Source: a virus (Duplodnaviria > Caudoviricetes). Taken from it: DNA of 38,552 nt. Both the position numbers and the translations under genes were made by a program. How positions within the stretch are numbered: position 1 is the stretch's first letter; the number at the start of each line of letters is the position of its first letter. This document shows, piece by piece, positions 22,918-33,247 of the stretch. The stretch lies in the IMG/VR virus record IMGVR_UViG_3300037195_001092, positions 1-38,552 of that record. One strand, written 5' to 3'. The notes beneath the pieces were generated by a model. That model had not been told where the DNA came from, made no database searches, and worked only from the letters and a program-made list of their open reading frames with translations.

Positions 22918-23930
22918 GGAACCAACCGCCTTTTCTTGTCACGATGCTTTTTGAACCTTTTCCAAACATTGGAAATCCGCTTCTGAATTCCTGCACCAGA
23001 CCAAGGAGAAGCACCCTCCATGTGCCTTTCGTAATAACCACGATCTGACCCTCTTCCTAATTCTGGAGGATTAACAGCATCAATCGCCGTTCCTACTACC
23101 CCCAAACTGCTCTTCCCTACTGTTTTGGCTACTTTTTTGCCCGTTTCTATTTTTCGCTTACGGGAAATTACTTTGTTTGCACTCGAAGCAGGATAATTCG
23201 GGACTTCCCCCTCTTTCATGTCCCATGCAATCCTGTCCATCCTTTGCTCGTATTTGTCCCCGTACTCTTTCTCTAAATACGGTGCCTTTTCTTTTTTACC
23301 ACCCCTCCAAACAATAGGTTCTCTGTATTCTTTGAATTGCTGATTTTTATAATACAGATTTTCCCGTTGCCACTGATTTTTAATAAATAAATCCGTTCTC
23401 TGAGGGTTTTTCATGTGTGCAACTTCATGAAGTGCAACATGCCTTCCTAAATCTTTCTCCGATTTGTATGCTCCCTTCGGTAAAGGCTTGTGTGTACTGT
23501 GCTTGTCACCCATCTCCCAACTACGCTTGCCTTCAGGCTTGTAATTGAAACTCCCGTATCTCGCTAAAGGCTTCCTTCCTCCTCTCCTTGTGTCTGTCTC
23601 CTCTCCCTCCTGAAAACCCCAATAACGCTTGACGTTCTCAGGCGATATCGAAACCGTCTGCTTTCTGTAATCAGTTCGCCCTAAAACCTTGCCTCCTGAT
23701 TGTTCGTAATCTCCAGGCTGAAAATGAAACGTCCAAGGCTTTGTGTGATCCCTGAATTCCCTTTCCGTAATGTCCATCTTCCTAAATGATTCAAAAGCAT
23801 GCTTCCTGTCCCAAAGATCCTCGTCTAAAACATCTGGACTGCTTGCCGCACCCCTCAACGAACTCTGCATCCGTATCAATTTCTTCTTCTTCAACTTTAT
23901 CGCTTGTGCCGTCTCCATGAAAATCATCAT
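22914..23930 (-). CDS. Hypothetical protein with HEXXH zincin motif
   Basis: HVALHEVAHM; LGRTDY...V.IS upstream; first gene of the late arm. Confidence 0.6.
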   Translation of the reverse strand: MMIFMETAQAIKLKKKKLIRMQSSLRGAASSPDVLDEDLWDRKHAFESFRKMDITEREFRDHTKPWTFHFQPGDYEQSGGKVLGRTDYRKQTVSISPENVKRYWGFQEGEETDTRRGGRKPLARYGSFNYKPEGKRSWEMGDKHSTHKPLPKGAYKSEKDLGRHVALHEVAHMKNPQRTDLFIKNQWQRENLYYKNQQFKEYREPIVWRGGKKEKAPYLEKEYGDKYEQRMDRIAWDMKEGEVPNYPASSANKVISRKRKIETGKKVAKTVGKSSLGVVGTAIDAVNPPELGRGSDRGYYERHMEGASPWSGAGIQKRISNVWKRFKKHRDKKRRLVP

Positions 23931-24007
23931 AACCCAAAAAAATCCATCCCCTGCTCCTAATCTTCATTTAGGCTATAGGTCTTAACATCGACAGAACACA
24001 CCAAGTA

Positions 24008-24063
24008 GAGAGGTGGGAGGAATCATATGCGTACTGCTCGCACTTTGTGCCCCCCACCCCCTC
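24008..24063. promoter_or_regulatory. G/C-tract element upstream of the late arm (candidate pac or late control site)
   Basis: GAGAGGTGGGAGG ... CCCCCCACCCCCTC imperfect inverted repeat enclosing TGCG..CGCA. Confidence 0.35.
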
Positions 24064-24094
24064 ATCGCCAGCACAGCTCCACCATTAGCTAATG

Positions 24095-24245
24095 ATCATC
24101 ATTAGTTATATATACATATTGATCCCCATATCTTATTGAGCAGATAGGCTTATGGTTGCTCTAATGAGTACAGCTACTTAACCAAGGGTATGATCATAGA
24201 ATGAACATAAGATATGGGAATGAAGATTATAGACTAATGGTGATT
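24095..24245 (+). ncRNA. Long imperfect stem-loop, candidate ncRNA
   Basis: ATCATCATTAGT/ACTAATGGTGAT (one G-U) and a perfect 12-bp CCCATATCTTAT/ATAAGATATGGG, with inner hairpins. Confidence 0.45.
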
Positions 24246-24588
24246 AATGCATGTTCTAGTAACACTTATTGCCTAAATTCAAATACCTACATTTAGCATA
24301 GGAATTAATATCATCAGAACATCAGTAATTGCTTTATCTGTTCATAGAATTCTTAATCCACTCTGTGTGAGATGATTCATCAGAGTTTAAGTCATGCACA
24401 CTCTTAAAGATCCATCTATTCATCATCGAAGTTCTTAGCCGTTGAATAATCATTTTATCCAATGGAGATAGGATATTTCTAAGCTATCTAAATGCTCTAT
24501 CTTTCATGCCATTCTCATCTTTTCTCAGGTTTGCATGCTGTCCCACGCTGACAGGCCACTGAAGAGTTGTAAGGTCTTTCCTTTCAAA

Positions 24589-24835
24589 CAATCTCTAGCT
24601 GATTGGGGAATCCCAGAACCTGACCCTGCCATGTTGAGGCTTTGCACATCGGCAACACTGGCACAGCGTTACAGTCATCATCCCCCATCCTCGACAATGC
24701 CCTGATCGGGTTTTTTCTGGTCATTGTTTCATCGTTGGTTTTTGTTTCATTTCAACCATAAAAAATCGAGGAGGGGGGCGTTCTTGGTTGGTGCAGGGTC
24801 AGAACCTGCGATTCCAAAAACCAATCAGGAGATTG
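24589..24835 (+). ncRNA. ~245-nt structured 5' leader that occludes the RBS of the first early gene
   Basis: Nested pairings CAATCTC/GAGATTG, CTGATTGG/CCAATCAG, GGAATC/GATTCC, CTGACCCTGC/GCAGGGTCAG and CCCCCATCCTCGA/TCGAGGAGGGGGG. Confidence 0.7.
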
Positions 24836-24838
24836 ATT

Positions 24839-25135
24839 ATGAAACGAAAAACCAACAACTCTAAAATCAGTAGCCCCATGTCAACGTGGTACAGGGCAAA
24901 GCCTGGAAAATCTGAAAATGGGAATGATAGGCCTCAGATATCTGGAAATATCGAGCTATCTCCACAAATGGTCAAAATGATCATTGCAAACGGAGAACTT
25001 CATGAAGATGAATATCTGGAGTTAAGAGTCAGTGCATGGCCTCAACCTCATGAGAATAATCAACCGACACACAGAGGAAGATTACAATTCTCTGATGAAC
25101 AGATTAAAGAATTCCAAAAAACTAAATCCGCTTAA
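24839..25135 (+). CDS. First early protein (98 aa), possible nucleic-acid-binding beta fold
   Basis: AGGAG RBS at 24827; ATG at 24839; N.RPQISG.I...VSAW.....QP..RG pattern reminiscent of DUF736-like proteins. Confidence 0.7.
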   Translation: MKRKTNNSKISSPMSTWYRAKPGKSENGNDRPQISGNIELSPQMVKMIIANGELHEDEYLELRVSAWPQPHENNQPTHRGRLQFSDEQIKEFQKTKSA

Positions 25136-25141
25136 CAACTT

Positions 25142-25172
25142 AAAGCCTTGCAGAAATGTAGGGCTTTTTTTT
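25142..25172 (+). terminator. Rho-independent terminator
   Basis: AAAGCCTTGCA-GAAA-TGTAGGGCTTT followed by a T-run, 6 nt after the stop at 25135. Confidence 0.88.
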
Positions 25173-25201
25173 ATGCAAACGCTTATACCCTTAAAGGAAA
25201 T

Positions 25202-25585
25202 ATGGAAGAAATTAAAACGAATCACCTAAATAGCACTAACGTAGGTAGAACGAGTGCAAGAGTTCGCAAAAATGATGCCACGTTCGATAATGCTGAAATG
25301 GTTGTTTATGAAGAATATCTACAGTCATTCTGGCCTGACTATAATCCTGTAACTGCAAAATACAGTCATGAGCAAGAACAGCTTAGATCTCGTAACTTTA
25401 GAATAATTGATAGCCCAGTTCAAAAAGCTCAACCAATTGTTTTATCTGATTGCGAGAGATTAACTAACTATCAACTTAGATCCCGATGGGATGAGATGAT
25501 GGTTGTTGCACGACAATTGGTTACTACTAATGAATTGCAGGAATTGATTAATGATCAAGAAGAAAGAGAGCGAGAGCTTATCTAA
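25202..25585 (+). CDS. Hypothetical early protein
   Basis: AAGGA RBS then ATG at 25202 (MEEIKT); 127 aa. Confidence 0.7.
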   Translation: MEEIKTNHLNSTNVGRTSARVRKNDATFDNAEMVVYEEYLQSFWPDYNPVTAKYSHEQEQLRSRNFRIIDSPVQKAQPIVLSDCERLTNYQLRSRWDEMMVVARQLVTTNELQELINDQEERERELI

Positions 25586-25733
25586 TCTACTCAGTAATCC
25601 AATTGTAATGGGTTTGGGAGCCATAATGATGGTTCCCGATTTAATCCCAGTGCTAATAGGAGCATTTATGGGATTTATCATTTCTAAATCTAAAAATAAA
25701 GGAAGTCATGCCCCAGAAAACGAAAAAGTATAG
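25551..25733 (+). CDS. Small membrane protein
   Basis: Hydrophobic IVMGLGAIMMVPDLIPVLIGAFMGFII stretch; start uncertain. Confidence 0.55.
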   Translation: MIKKKESESLSNLLSNPIVMGLGAIMMVPDLIPVLIGAFMGFIISKSKNKGSHAPENEKV

Positions 25734-25947
25734 AACGAACATCAAACAAGATCTGAATGATGCAAGTGAAACCATCAATAATTCCGATTTTGTTGGTGAA
25801 GCAATTAATACGGTTGTGGATCATCAAGAAACAATTGTAATCACTTTATTCAGAATGCTGACTACATTAGTAGTGGGCTTTATTACAGTCATCACGGCTG
25901 TACTCAATATTCCTTTTAAAATCTTCACAAAGAAAGAGGAGTTTTGA
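25708..25947 (+). CDS. Small membrane protein
   Basis: AAGGAAG RBS; C-terminal hydrophobic segment. Confidence 0.65.
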   Translation: MPQKTKKYRTNIKQDLNDASETINNSDFVGEAINTVVDHQETIVITLFRMLTTLVVGFITVITAVLNIPFKIFTKKEEF

Positions 25948-26177
25948 TGAAAGATCTACAGTCATCATATAATCAAAAAGACCAACTATATAATCATACG
26001 CTTGGTCGATTAGCTGGTGTTAAGGCTGGCACTCCCAGACAACTTAAATTCAATCATGTAAACTTTGTTAACTTAAAAGCCAAACGTGATTGGATTAAAA
26101 TGCAGGAAAAAACCCTCCAGAGTCTTCACAAGGTACTCAAACGTCTGAGTACCAAAATCCATGTTCAAGCCGCTTAA
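25944..26177 (+). CDS. Basic hypothetical protein
   Basis: GAGGAG RBS; overlaps the upstream stop. Confidence 0.65.
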   Translation: MMKDLQSSYNQKDQLYNHTLGRLAGVKAGTPRQLKFNHVNFVNLKAKRDWIKMQEKTLQSLHKVLKRLSTKIHVQAA

Positions 26178-26185
26178 ATGCAAAC

Positions 26186-26203
26186 GGGAGTCGTATGGCT
26201 CCC
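26186..26203 (+). repeat. Hairpin GGGAGTC-GTAT-GGCTCCC (copy 1)
   Basis: Stem identical to 26434-26451. Confidence 0.75.
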
Positions 26204-26233
26204 ATTCCTTAAACCCATTCATAAATTAATACA

Positions 26234-26428
26234 ATGAAATTAAACGATTTATCCAATGTTCGATTAGATGATAGAGCCTACAACTTCTTTGCCTTCCACG
26301 ATCATATTCAAGAGATCTGGTTAAATGACCAAAAAGTCTTTACAGAAGTTCCACGTAAAGCTGATGGATCACTTGATGATGATAATCTCACCTATTTCAC
26401 ACGAAGTGAATTTCCTGATTTCTCATAA
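26234..26428 (+). CDS. Hypothetical early protein
   Basis: 64-aa ORF bracketed by the twin hairpins. Confidence 0.65.
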   Translation: MKLNDLSNVRLDDRAYNFFAFHDHIQEIWLNDQKVFTEVPRKADGSLDDDNLTYFTRSEFPDFS

Positions 26429-26433
26429 CACCA

Positions 26434-26597
26434 GGGAGTCGAAAGGCTCCCACATGTCTAATTACAGTCATCAACCAGGATACGCTAACACTCTTAACGC
26501 TCACTCGTGCGCAGGACCGTACAGTCATCACTATGCCAATGTAAGATCCCCTTCGGGGTCCCTTTCACGGGTGAAGGGCCCCTCGGGGGGCGCATGT
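26434..26597 (+). ncRNA. Tetraloop-rich intergenic structured RNA candidate
   Basis: A GAAA hairpin, two TACAGTCATCA copies, then three back-to-back GC hairpins (TTCG, CGGG and TCGG loops). Confidence 0.55.
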
Positions 26598-26618
26598 TAA
26601 TCTCAAACAATAATAATT

Positions 26619-26855
26619 ATGGCAGTAGTATTTTATATTAAAGATTTCCTACGTATTGCAGATGTGGATCTGCTGTATGAGGGACTAAAAATGATTGAAG
26701 ATAGAATATGGGAAGAAGCTGATGTCCAATCAGGTCTTGATGCAGAAAAACTTCAGAGAGTCGAAGATCTCAGATGTTCGATTCTTCAATGTCTTGAACA
26801 CATCTCAAAGGAGAAAAGTAATGAAGTACAGTTGGACACAAAAACCAATCCTTAG
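26619..26855 (+). CDS. Hypothetical protein
   Basis: 78-aa ORF in the early operon. Confidence 0.6.
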   Translation: MAVVFYIKDFLRIADVDLLYEGLKMIEDRIWEEADVQSGLDAEKLQRVEDLRCSILQCLEHISKEKSNEVQLDTKTNP

Positions 26856-27054
26856 ATGGTTTTCATGCTGGCATGGAACTCCATACTGGCATTTTTATGA
26901 TCCCATTGATTGGGAAGAATATGAGATGACACTGAGTTTAAAAAAGTTTCATCCAATACGTTATAAATGGTTCATTTTATTGTGTATTATTGATGAAAAA
27001 GTAACTAAACTAATTGATAAGAAAAACGTAATTAATAACGATATCCCTTTCTAA
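26821..27054 (+). CDS. Trp/aromatic-rich hypothetical protein ending DIPF
   Basis: AAGGAG RBS then ATG at 26821 (MKYSWT). Confidence 0.6.
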   Translation: MKYSWTQKPILRWFSCWHGTPYWHFYDPIDWEEYEMTLSLKKFHPIRYKWFILLCIIDEKVTKLIDKKNVINNDIPF

Positions 27055-29984: not shown

Positions 29985-30044
29985 AGAATTCATTAAGCTA
30001 TGTTAATTTACTTAACATTAATGAACCTGTCAACAATATTTCAA

Positions 30045-30245
30045 ATGAACCTCAAGCAAGCCTATGAATTTTACCAAGGTGTGCGGCTGAGTGAAGTCGC
30101 AAGAGATCTGGATGTATCTGAGGCGTTTGTCAGTCAGGTACTATCAGGAAAAAGAAACTCTGCTCAAGTGACCACAGAGTTACGGCAGAGAATTGAGAAT
30201 CGAATCAGCGAACTCAAATCCAATTTATGTTCTCAGTCCAGTTAA
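30045..30245 (+). CDS. Cro-like HTH transcriptional regulator
   Basis: LSEVARDLDVSEAFVSQVLSGKRNS HTH; alternative in-frame ATGs at 30000 and 30021. Confidence 0.85.
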   Translation: MNLKQAYEFYQGVRLSEVARDLDVSEAFVSQVLSGKRNSAQVTTELRQRIENRISELKSNLCSQSS

Positions 30246-32631: not shown

Positions 32632-33247
32632 ACTTAAAGCGATTTTGAAGATGGAATTGAGCGATAGACAACGCCGAATTCTGATTGCTGAAGACGTTCT
32701 AGGAATCTACGGAGTTGAGCGTATATCTGCGGTTACGGGGATTTCGATGAACCATGTTTATACTGAATTGAAGGTCATGAAAGAGTCCCAGGTACGTAGT
32801 ACGTACTTGGTACTAACTGAGCATGATATATTAACCAAAGATGTAGATGTTGATAGTAATGAAACAATAACCAACATGAATGCCGATGGAGATAGAATAC
32901 CTCCATCTAAAGATAATACCAATGTAGATGTATATAGTAATGATTATATAGATATATATACCCAATATCCGAAGAAGACCGATAAGAGACGAGGAGAGAA
33001 AGTCTTCAAGAGTCTGATCAAGAACGGATACTCAAAATCATTCCTCCTTCAGTGTGTTCAGAACTATCTCGACAGTGGTGGAAACAACCGAGTCCGAGAT
33101 AGAGATCCCAACTACATCAAATCCTTAGCCGTCTTTCTGGGTCCAGATCAGCATTTTCTGGAATATTCAGAATCGTCTGAGCCCTCACAGCCTCCTCCAA
33201 AGCCTTTCATTGATGAGGACAACTCCATTTCCAATCTTTTGGTATGA
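32612..33247 (+). CDS. Replication initiator (lambda O-like organisation)
   Basis: N-terminal HTH-like part, low-complexity linker over AT-rich repeats, C-terminal YPKK..K....F...YIK....FL domain; upstream of the DnaC-like gene. Confidence 0.72.
   Translation: MTEVKSKLKAILKMELSDRQRRILIAEDVLGIYGVERISAVTGISMNHVYTELKVMKESQVRSTYLVLTEHDILTKDVDVDSNETITNMNADGDRIPPSKDNTNVDVYSNDYIDIYTQYPKKTDKRRGEKVFKSLIKNGYSKSFLLQCVQNYLDSGGNNRVRDRDPNYIKSLAVFLGPDQHFLEYSESSEPSQPPPKPFIDEDNSISNLLV
32788..32960. other. Putative replication origin inside the initiator gene
   Basis: Palindrome GTACGTA-G-TACGTAC; 22-bp direct repeat ATGTAGATGTnnATAGTAATGA at 32841 and 32922; hairpin GATGGAG/CTCCATC; TA-rich tract. Confidence 0.6.

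Follow-up and report, generated by a model that had tools for sequence, protein, structure and literature searches.

Genomic setting of the leader

The window, that is the whole stretch of 38,552 nucleotides analysed here, is the genome of a tailed phage (38.5 kb) whose tail genes are T7-like and whose capsid genes are HTVC010P-like; its best read sources are marine metagenomes. HTVC010P-like podoviruses are described in PMC10504331 as being among the abundant marine phages. Two gene blocks diverge: structural genes run leftward from 23930, small early and replication genes rightward from 24839. The leader element studied here forms the right end of the 900-base gap separating these two blocks. 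None of the 57 proteins of the window was recognised as a sigma factor or RNA polymerase, the 13 unassigned proteins have no polymerase-like motifs, and no tRNA or tmRNA was found. An 81-aa HTH protein with weak LacI/repressor matches is encoded at 30000-30245. The best prophage terminase match in the host search showed only 44-51% identity.

The first early gene, gene 1 (24839-25135, + strand), encodes a small, beta-rich protein of 98 aa and is followed by an intrinsic-terminator-like hairpin and T-run (25142-25175, + strand), found in the same place in all homologues read. The structure model of the protein has four strands and two helices (pLDDT 75.8). No family was found for it in Pfam or PHROG and no fold match at E ≤ 0.001 in the PDB or the viral library (best Z 3.1); a weak lead to DUF736 comes from the Atlas, which gives this domain in 23% of one cluster at 0.90. 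Most gene 1 homologues end in KSA, KVA or similar, a C-terminus that we take to resemble a protease tag and that would suit a tightly dosed regulator.

The gap itself holds further features. At 24043-24075 an AT-rich tract follows a C-rich box (TTTGTGCCCCCCACCCCCT), a possible terminus or packaging signal, and similar C-rich boxes stand in the same place in the loci L003, L018, L020, L021, L032, L033, L039 and L094. Contig depth is raised about 3-fold at 24014-24557 in run X3 and about 2-fold at 24021-24268 in run X4, both stretches beginning near 24015; the excess may reflect a direct terminal repeat, or sequence common to several strains. A second long hairpin at 24080-24245 (arms 24080-103/24219-242 and 24116-136/24207-227) shows complementary changes in L003 and is weaker than the leader, with z −4.2 in one folding frame and −0.8 in another. 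The stretch 24280-24570 is conserved without a conserved ORF and is a candidate early or late promoter region; a 17-base block at 24519-24535 is invariant across the window, L003 and L005. Elsewhere, two 22-base direct repeats, 81 apart, lie at 32841-32943 within the replication-initiator gene and are candidate origin iterons.

Architecture of the leader

The outer stem of the leader is built, on the + strand, from the arm pairs CAATCTC/GAGATTG, CTGATTGG/CCAATCAG, GGAATC/GATTCC and CTGACCCTGC/GCAGGGTCAG; every arm was checked in the sequence and sits where the original prediction had placed it. The 5' arm of P1a with its extension (24580-24598) carries the anti-Shine-Dalgarno CAATCTC at 24589-95, an invariant 3-nt bulge at 24596-98 and a pyrimidine-rich extension predicted to pair over the ATG. 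P1b (24599-606), P1c (24607-12), a CAG/AAC element and the P2 5' arm, X (24620-29), together occupy 24599-24629, and are followed by a lineage-specific hairpin (24627-24663) and by the 11-mer box TACAGTCATCA (24670-24680), 169 nt before the ATG. The three-way-junction core (24682-24778) comprises P4, the linker CAAW, P5, a T-run and P6. P4 is a 13-bp stem (24682-94/24766-78) with one invariant A·G mismatch (24687·24773), and the P5 hairpin (24699-24711), which has an invariant G·U, is followed by the T-run that opens P6 (24712-21/24755-64). On the 3' side, 24792-24810 contains the P2 3' arm, Y (24793-802), and a mutually exclusive local hairpin, Y:Y' (24792-97/24805-10), and 24810-24841 contains the 3' arms of P1c, P1b and P1a with the Shine-Dalgarno AGGAG (24827-31) and the ATG. 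The 5' arm likewise has an alternative, a self-hairpin CAATC/GATTG with a 7-nt loop (24589-24605, −4.2 kcal/mol). All of these features lie on the + strand. The sequence CAGAACCTG is present twice, at 24614 and 24800. The repeated nature of the 11-mer, the three-way junction and the two arm hairpins were absent from the original prediction, which had described the 11-mer as unpaired; it is only partly so in the ensemble (0.58), where the AGGAG is fully paired (probability unpaired 0.00).

In a z-score analysis of 24580-24850, the + strand folds at −93.8 kcal/mol (z −3.99), the − strand at −105 kcal/mol (z −6.71) and the + strand with DNA parameters at z −4.22, none of 200 shuffles being as good in any of the three cases. 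The folded region was picked around the stem, and some nearby coding stretches reach z −4 to −7 (12 shuffles); because these values are similar, the comparative data and not the z-score must decide.

Rfam 15, at the gathering score, gave no matches across the whole window, and the five homologous loci gave none at E ≤ 1. Over 23800-27000, five weak matches at E ≤ 5 were obtained, none of them on the leader element. A hairpin ribozyme with the box as its substrate was considered and rejected, since there is no guide-like sequence on either strand and no Rfam match.

Conservation and covariation

The gene 1 search yielded four metagenome loci, of which three are real (L003, L004, whose leader is identical, and L005) and one, from tblastn, is spurious (L006); the terminase search yielded 80 viral loci, two of them with the leader (L018, L021). 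There are five leader lineages in total (window, L003, L005, L018, L021), the gene 1 identity of the other four to the window being 77, 68, 41 and 48%. That the leader stands before an unrelated gene was ruled out, as the gene in question is a diverged gene 1. All five leaders fold well, with z −3.1 to −6.7 on the + strand and −3.8 to −7.9 on the − strand (40 shuffles), and the leader is conserved in shape and not in letters. P1c changes from GGAATC/GATTCC to AAAATC/GATTTT and GAAAATC/GATTTTC, with double changes in L005 and L003. In L003, L018 and L021 unrelated sequences, again complementary, take the place of P2, which is a perfect helix of 10-13 bp.

The three-way junction, with P4, a four-base linker, P5 and P6, is common to four lineages, the interior of L003 being different and longer. 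In this core, double changes occur in 10 of 26 pairs and 95% of cells pair, which none of 500 shuffles matches; in slid controls 43-64% paired. These figures come from four related sequences, with the structure drawn from the same four, and for two of the ten pairs the alignment of L021 is poor. The 11 changed-and-paired cells are all double changes without a G·U intermediate, and one-sided changes are absent from all 104 core cells. In two near relatives, none of nine variant positions falls in a helix, helices taking up 119 of the 253 positions (P 0.003), and one variant in near relatives repairs a mismatch. The first P1c base (24607) is changed in contigs of two other runs that do not cover its partner, and one low-depth variant falls in the box, at 24679.

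Could complementarity of this kind have been maintained by template switching between neutral inverted repeats? Such a process would account for the exclusive occurrence of double changes; a nested three-way junction with invariant mismatches, the depletion of variants in helices (P 0.003) and the rebuilding of helices from unrelated sequence in three lineages speak against it, and we consider it extremely unlikely. The leader is a real, selected structure covering the ribosome-binding site.

Two parts of the original prediction did not survive the comparison. The hairpin at 24627-63, which had been presented as competing with the stem, is found in one of the five lineages, is absent in L005 and L018, and contains the variants 24631, 24652 and 24662. 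The two-fold symmetric AAC/AAC loop, suggested as a site for RNase III or a dimeric protein, occurs only in the window and L005; its symmetry arises because each arm carries its own small hairpin. All lineages have a long irregular helix, which may contain another RNase III site.

In IMG/VR, the stem pattern of the window had no matches, the core pattern found only L018 and L021 again, and the gene 1 queries found nothing; the 5' arm pattern had two matches (L007, L008), in tape-measure-like genes, that were dismissed as chance. The annotated phage collection contains no DNA relative and no gene 1 relative. A covariance model run over 87 sources recovered its four training sequences and part of L003 (E 0.004), and a further match, L022 (E 0.012), is probably chance. 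Distant relatives (L032, L094, L058, L033, L039) have no comparable rod, with early-strand z of +0.2 to −3.1. In L033 (2985-3050) and L039 (2610-2770), both on the − strand, there are only short local hairpins at or near the first Shine-Dalgarno, with a separate AT-rich hairpin upstream. The proteins P0007, P0017, P0030 and P0034 are over-long gene calls whose N-terminal extension (NRGG…VQ) resembles an in-frame reading of the 3' portion of the leader, a hint of a further lineage that keeps the P4 and P2 3' arms. Full-text literature searches gave no description of the element, and five motif strings are absent from six supplementary files of PMC10690425, a set without its two largest files, so that the element may be among the candidates of that study; it is apparently new to the literature.

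The predicted lock on the Shine-Dalgarno and its alternative folds

The rod ends on the Shine-Dalgarno and the ATG in the window, L003 and L005, and the computed energy for opening the ribosome site is 19.7 kcal/mol in the window, 20.2 in L003 and 22.3 in L005. The background in 38 other ORFs, each taken with 260 nt upstream, is 6.2 ± 2.8 kcal/mol, with a maximum of 14.3. In L018 the opening energy is 5-13 kcal/mol, varying with the 5' end chosen, and in L021 it is 6.9 kcal/mol. The lock that had been proposed for the window is thus strong in three of the five lineages, moderate in L018 and absent in L021. Against shuffles, the duplex of the P1a 5' arm with the ribosome-binding site gives P 0.034 (window), 0.003 (L005), 0.053 (L003) and 0.067 (L018).

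The computed folds describe a two-state design in which each outer arm can fold on itself. On the 3' side, Y:Y' pairing is found in all five lineages (P 0.03 in the window, 0.003 in L005, 0.20 in L003, 0.0005 in L018 and 0.0005 in L021), is significant in four of them and occurs in three unrelated sequences. In three of three lineages, nascent prefixes that stop 27 and 17 nt short of the ATG have the self-hairpin of the 5' side as their lowest-energy form (equilibrium folds), and this hairpin also contains the anti-Shine-Dalgarno in the forced-open state; its sequence is invariant in the window, L003 and L005 and shows no covariation. In the window the alternative folds lie 9-15 kcal/mol above the locked state, so the full-length RNA would be off at equilibrium.

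These alternative folds bear on how the lock might be released. The same + strand lock could work without a second start, either through a short kinetic window in the style of MS2 or through a protein or nuclease, such as the gene 1 product, or RNase III followed by decay of the 5' half. We judge this somewhat unlikely; its kinetic form nevertheless stands, on our analysis, as the main rival to the reading preferred below, and explains the 5' hairpin. It draws on the prefix and forced-open folds just described, on the invariance of the 19-nt 5' hairpin region including its unpaired bulge, and on the precedent of MS2 as set out in PMC4615214. On the other side, the hairpin is weak and the locked state lies 15-19 kcal/mol lower, the symmetric loop occurs in two of five lineages, no nucleic-acid-binding fold is assignable to gene 1, and one cut leaves the halves together. 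Neither form explains the box. Activation of the leader by one internal cut fails on energy, because the halves stay paired (−98.0 vs −74.7 kcal/mol), and a single cut at the box was rejected as the unlocking step for the same reason.

An RNA started at the box behaves otherwise, with computed opening energies of 6.5-7.0, 4.0 and 3.0-3.8 kcal/mol in the three strongly locked lineages. If the window RNA begins 10 nt beyond the box, the figure is 12.6 kcal/mol, and a start near 24597 would halve the lock (8-10 kcal/mol).

A repeated box in the early region

The 11-mer TACAGTCATCA occurs in five exact copies, all on the early (+) strand and within 1.9 kb; with up to one mismatch there are six matches against 0.83 expected, all on the + strand between 24670 and 26530, and an extra, weaker copy lies at 25320. 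This makes seven sites (five exact, two degenerate) in 1.9 kb, four of them inside ORFs. The two degenerate copies (25320-25371, + strand) lie inside ORF 25202-25585, and the second encodes Tyr-Ser-His, its three codons being identical in five of five homologues. Two exact copies fall within 25884-25967 (+ strand), one at 25884 in ORF 25708-25947, kept in L004, L005 and L010, and one at 25957 in ORF 25947-26177; two more are intergenic (26463-26530, + strand), at 26463 and 26520, both kept in L010. Relatives retain the copies inside ORFs in different frames and with fixed codons (genome frequencies 0.2-0.6 each), which suggests at the sequence level that the box is selected even inside reading frames.

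Other repeated and structured features lie in the same region. A GGGAGTCG..GGCTCCC hairpin is present in two copies, at 26186-26204 and within 26434-26620; the second opens an intergenic block (26434-26620) that contains a UUCG-loop hairpin and two boxes and is preserved in part in L010. Over the small early ORFs, serial + strand windows at 25320-26900 reach z −3 to −6 (12 shuffles only), which suggests more mRNA structure across these ORFs.

The leader copy keeps its distance from the ATG, at 169 nt in the window, 167 in L005, 161 in L003 and 171 in L018, although L003 has about 65 extra nt on the 5' side. L021, which is without the lock, has no box in its leader and keeps the box in ORF2. 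The distant phage L032 (terminase 68% identical) has another word, ATCACTATCA, in five copies against 0.04 expected. These 10-mers lie in the leader, after the first gene and in the next ORFs, five of five on the early strand, and one directly precedes a terminator hairpin. L032 ORF2 matches window ORF2 at E 0.021 with a probability of 2%, so the correspondence of places is one of gene order only. A pyrimidine-rich word, TCCTTTCA..CAATCTC, is nearly the same in the window (24576-24595) and in L032 (1466-1483, − strand), where it lies 404 nt before the first early gene and directly before that phage's own box; on this resemblance, it could mark a transcription start.

Box copies are not preferentially single-stranded (local percentiles 0.09-0.81 on the + strand, 20 copies) and lack a consistent partner at −35 or −10. 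Upstream of the leader, and inside it on either strand within 24589-24835, a search confined to sigma-70-type promoters found none. Chi/KOPS-like host motifs are strongly over-represented in the host genome; in 401 sampled bacterial genomes of one phylum, which may not include the host, the box is not enriched, with at most five copies per genome, and in five others at most two. Within the phage genome, nothing but the antisense of the boxes themselves is perfectly complementary to the box. Systems of the P4 CI/P1 C4 type rely on an arrangement with such a complement, and this type was rejected here because no + strand complement of the box exists.

The early setting of the boxes might instead point to attenuation or antitermination, with P5 and its T-run as a terminator or pause and the box as a nut-like RNA, or a stoperator-like DNA site, governing read-through of early terminators. 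A GC hairpin is directly followed by 4-6 T in four of five lineages, a terminator-like match lies at 24703-23, the boxes are asymmetric, all oriented with transcription and only in the first 1.9 kb, and one L032 copy stands immediately before a terminator hairpin; oriented, asymmetric stoperators are known (PMC9283540). P5 has, however, just four pairs and is missing from L003, the box copies are no more single-stranded than their surroundings, and the pairing over the Shine-Dalgarno is unexplained. We regard this reading as quite unlikely.

Which strand or molecule acts

The − strand folds better in five of five lineages, by 5-12 kcal/mol with G·U pairs and by 1-10 without, and the AAC/AAC loop reads as G·U/U·U/U·G on it. 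Exposure of the box on the + and − strands is nearly equal (0.58/0.58, 0.46/0.44, 0.65/0.66, 0.55/0.54). Hints of a + strand RNA are the ending of the rod on the Shine-Dalgarno and ATG, the invariant G·U in P5, the invariant A·G in P4 and the T-run after P5, and Y:Y' is more stable on the + than on the − strand (−9.1/−7.4 in the window, −11.1/−8.8 in L005, −7.4/−3.0 in L003). The absence of one-sided changes in the core suits a DNA hairpin as well as RNA. We think that the element is probably a + strand, translation-locking leader of some kind.

A − strand RNA would use the better-folding strand, and would present the box complement as a seed on the rod, silencing early mRNAs by pairing to the other six copies of the box in them. 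It would explain why in-ORF copies keep fixed codons, and the box antisense is the sole perfect box complement in the genome. There is no − strand terminator-like site at the rod end, however, the seed is equally exposed on both strands, L021 has a box in ORF2 and none in the rod, and the ending of the rod on the Shine-Dalgarno would be a coincidence; we consider a − strand RNA improbable.

Little probability likewise attaches to a hairpin acting as DNA (an ssDNA promoter, or a signal for priming or packaging close to the genome end), where the box would serve as a DNA-binding site and the Shine-Dalgarno overlap would be incidental. The fold with DNA parameters (z −4.2) and the purely Watson-Crick covariation would fit, as would the position of the leader, about 550 bases from the C-rich box and AT-rich tract of several related phages and adjoining the stretch of 2-3-fold depth in two runs. 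In an Frpo-type ssDNA promoter the −35 and −10 boxes form inside the stem; no sigma-70-type pair was found inside this one on either strand. The invariant G·U and A·G fit RNA, as do the ordinary terminator-like signals close by, the repeated 22-mer, a possible origin, lies elsewhere, in the initiator gene, and we know of no single-stranded entry phase for a dsDNA podovirus-type genome.

Proposed mechanism

We propose that the element is likely to be the 5' leader of the first early mRNA, whose rod buries the gene 1 Shine-Dalgarno and start codon when wholly transcribed, and that it is likely to be unlocked by a second transcription start at the mid-leader box. The arms are complementary and remain so across lineages. 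By computation, the full leader would need about 20 kcal/mol for opening at the ribosome site, whereas an RNA from the box would be without both 5' arms, fold the core and Y:Y' and open at 3-7 kcal/mol, the ordinary level of this genome. The element would act as + strand RNA and, in the weakest step, the box would be a start signal for a phage or host factor, its other copies serving neighbouring early genes. The early operon would then be transcribed, and gene 1 protein would be made only once the box comes into use.

Release of the lock by a start at the box is our best explanation, and taken whole we hold it tentatively. Y:Y' is the fold expected when X is missing, which fits a second start; processing accounts less well than such a start for Y:Y', the constant box-to-ATG distance and the loss of both box and lock in L021, because the box-started RNA opens and the cut halves stay paired. 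Against it count the absence of a recognisable sigma-70 site, and of a recognised sigma factor or polymerase among the 57 proteins, the moderate lock of L018 and the absent lock of L021, and the L032 copy just before a terminator hairpin is awkward for a promoter reading of the box. Both strands might also take part, with the + strand rod locking gene 1 while the box complement of a − strand transcript pairs as a seed with the six early-mRNA copies, those within coding sequence included, and the box re-coded at similar places in each clade (TACAGTCATCA here, ATCACTATCA in L032). We consider this very unlikely; if true, it would be a private, reprogrammable address system for early genes in each phage clade.

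The locus is a putative, compact control module in which a covarying two-state leader is joined to a clade-specific box, and its predicted 260-nt lock would be a translation switch of natural origin and high contrast. Were the box a start signal, as preferred here, it would represent a promoter class not yet recognised, in a genome where neither a sigma factor nor a polymerase has been recognised; were it instead a roadblock site or the target of an RNA seed, it would represent a kind of phage regulon known mainly from temperate mycobacteriophages.

Comparison with known systems

In the literature searched on HTVC010P-like genome ends and structured RNAs, we found no account of early control. 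The closest logic is that of the T4 genes e, soc, 49 and I-TevI, in which, according to PMC3014915, the ribosome-binding site is sequestered in a long transcript and a late promoter is embedded. In both cases an upstream arm of a long transcript pairs, here by prediction, over the Shine-Dalgarno and AUG, and, as computed here, a start in the arm region would open the site. The T4 cases described there are local stem-loops of late genes with the late promoter by the ribosome-binding site. Here, by contrast, pairing over 250-320 nt encloses a three-way junction ahead of the first early gene, with an unrelated 11-mer as the candidate signal. The T4 late promoter box, as given in that paper, is not in 24580-24841, and no gp55-type sigma factor is among the 57 proteins.

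The 5' UTR of the maturation gene of MS2 (Levivirus) similarly uses long-distance anti-Shine-Dalgarno pairing with a delaying metastable hairpin (PMC4615214). Alike are the anti-Shine-Dalgarno pairing at a distance around a multibranch interior and the small alternative hairpin containing the anti-Shine-Dalgarno. MS2 employs a 7-nt pairing in a genomic RNA end of roughly 130 nt, whereas the present leader, in a dsDNA phage, has an outer stem of about 34 bp, a second switch hairpin on the 3' side and a repeated box. The leader shares no sequence or Rfam similarity with MS2, and the gene set is that of a tailed dsDNA phage, not of a levivirus. In type I toxin mRNAs, for instance aapA3, Shine-Dalgarno sequestration and metastable alternative hairpins block translation (PMC6733600); here the hairpins would favour translation, and no small toxin peptide or cis antitoxin RNA was identified.

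The lambda pL/N leader carries a nut site and an RNase III stem, with one nut site per operon. It shares with our locus a long leader before a small first early gene and then a terminator; here no boxA/boxB or N-like basic peptide is demonstrated, and the box forms a cluster. For the box only, there is a likeness to the stoperators of mycobacteriophage L5, which are also short asymmetric sites oriented with transcription. In L5, as described in PMC9283540, more than twenty 13-mers are spread genome-wide over promoter regions and intergenic gaps and are served by a 183-aa two-domain repressor, whereas the window has seven 11-mer sites in 1.9 kb, four in ORFs, and the 81-aa HTH protein as the only candidate. 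By these comparisons, the logic of the leader resembles that of known Shine-Dalgarno-locking leaders, joined here to a clade-specific box.
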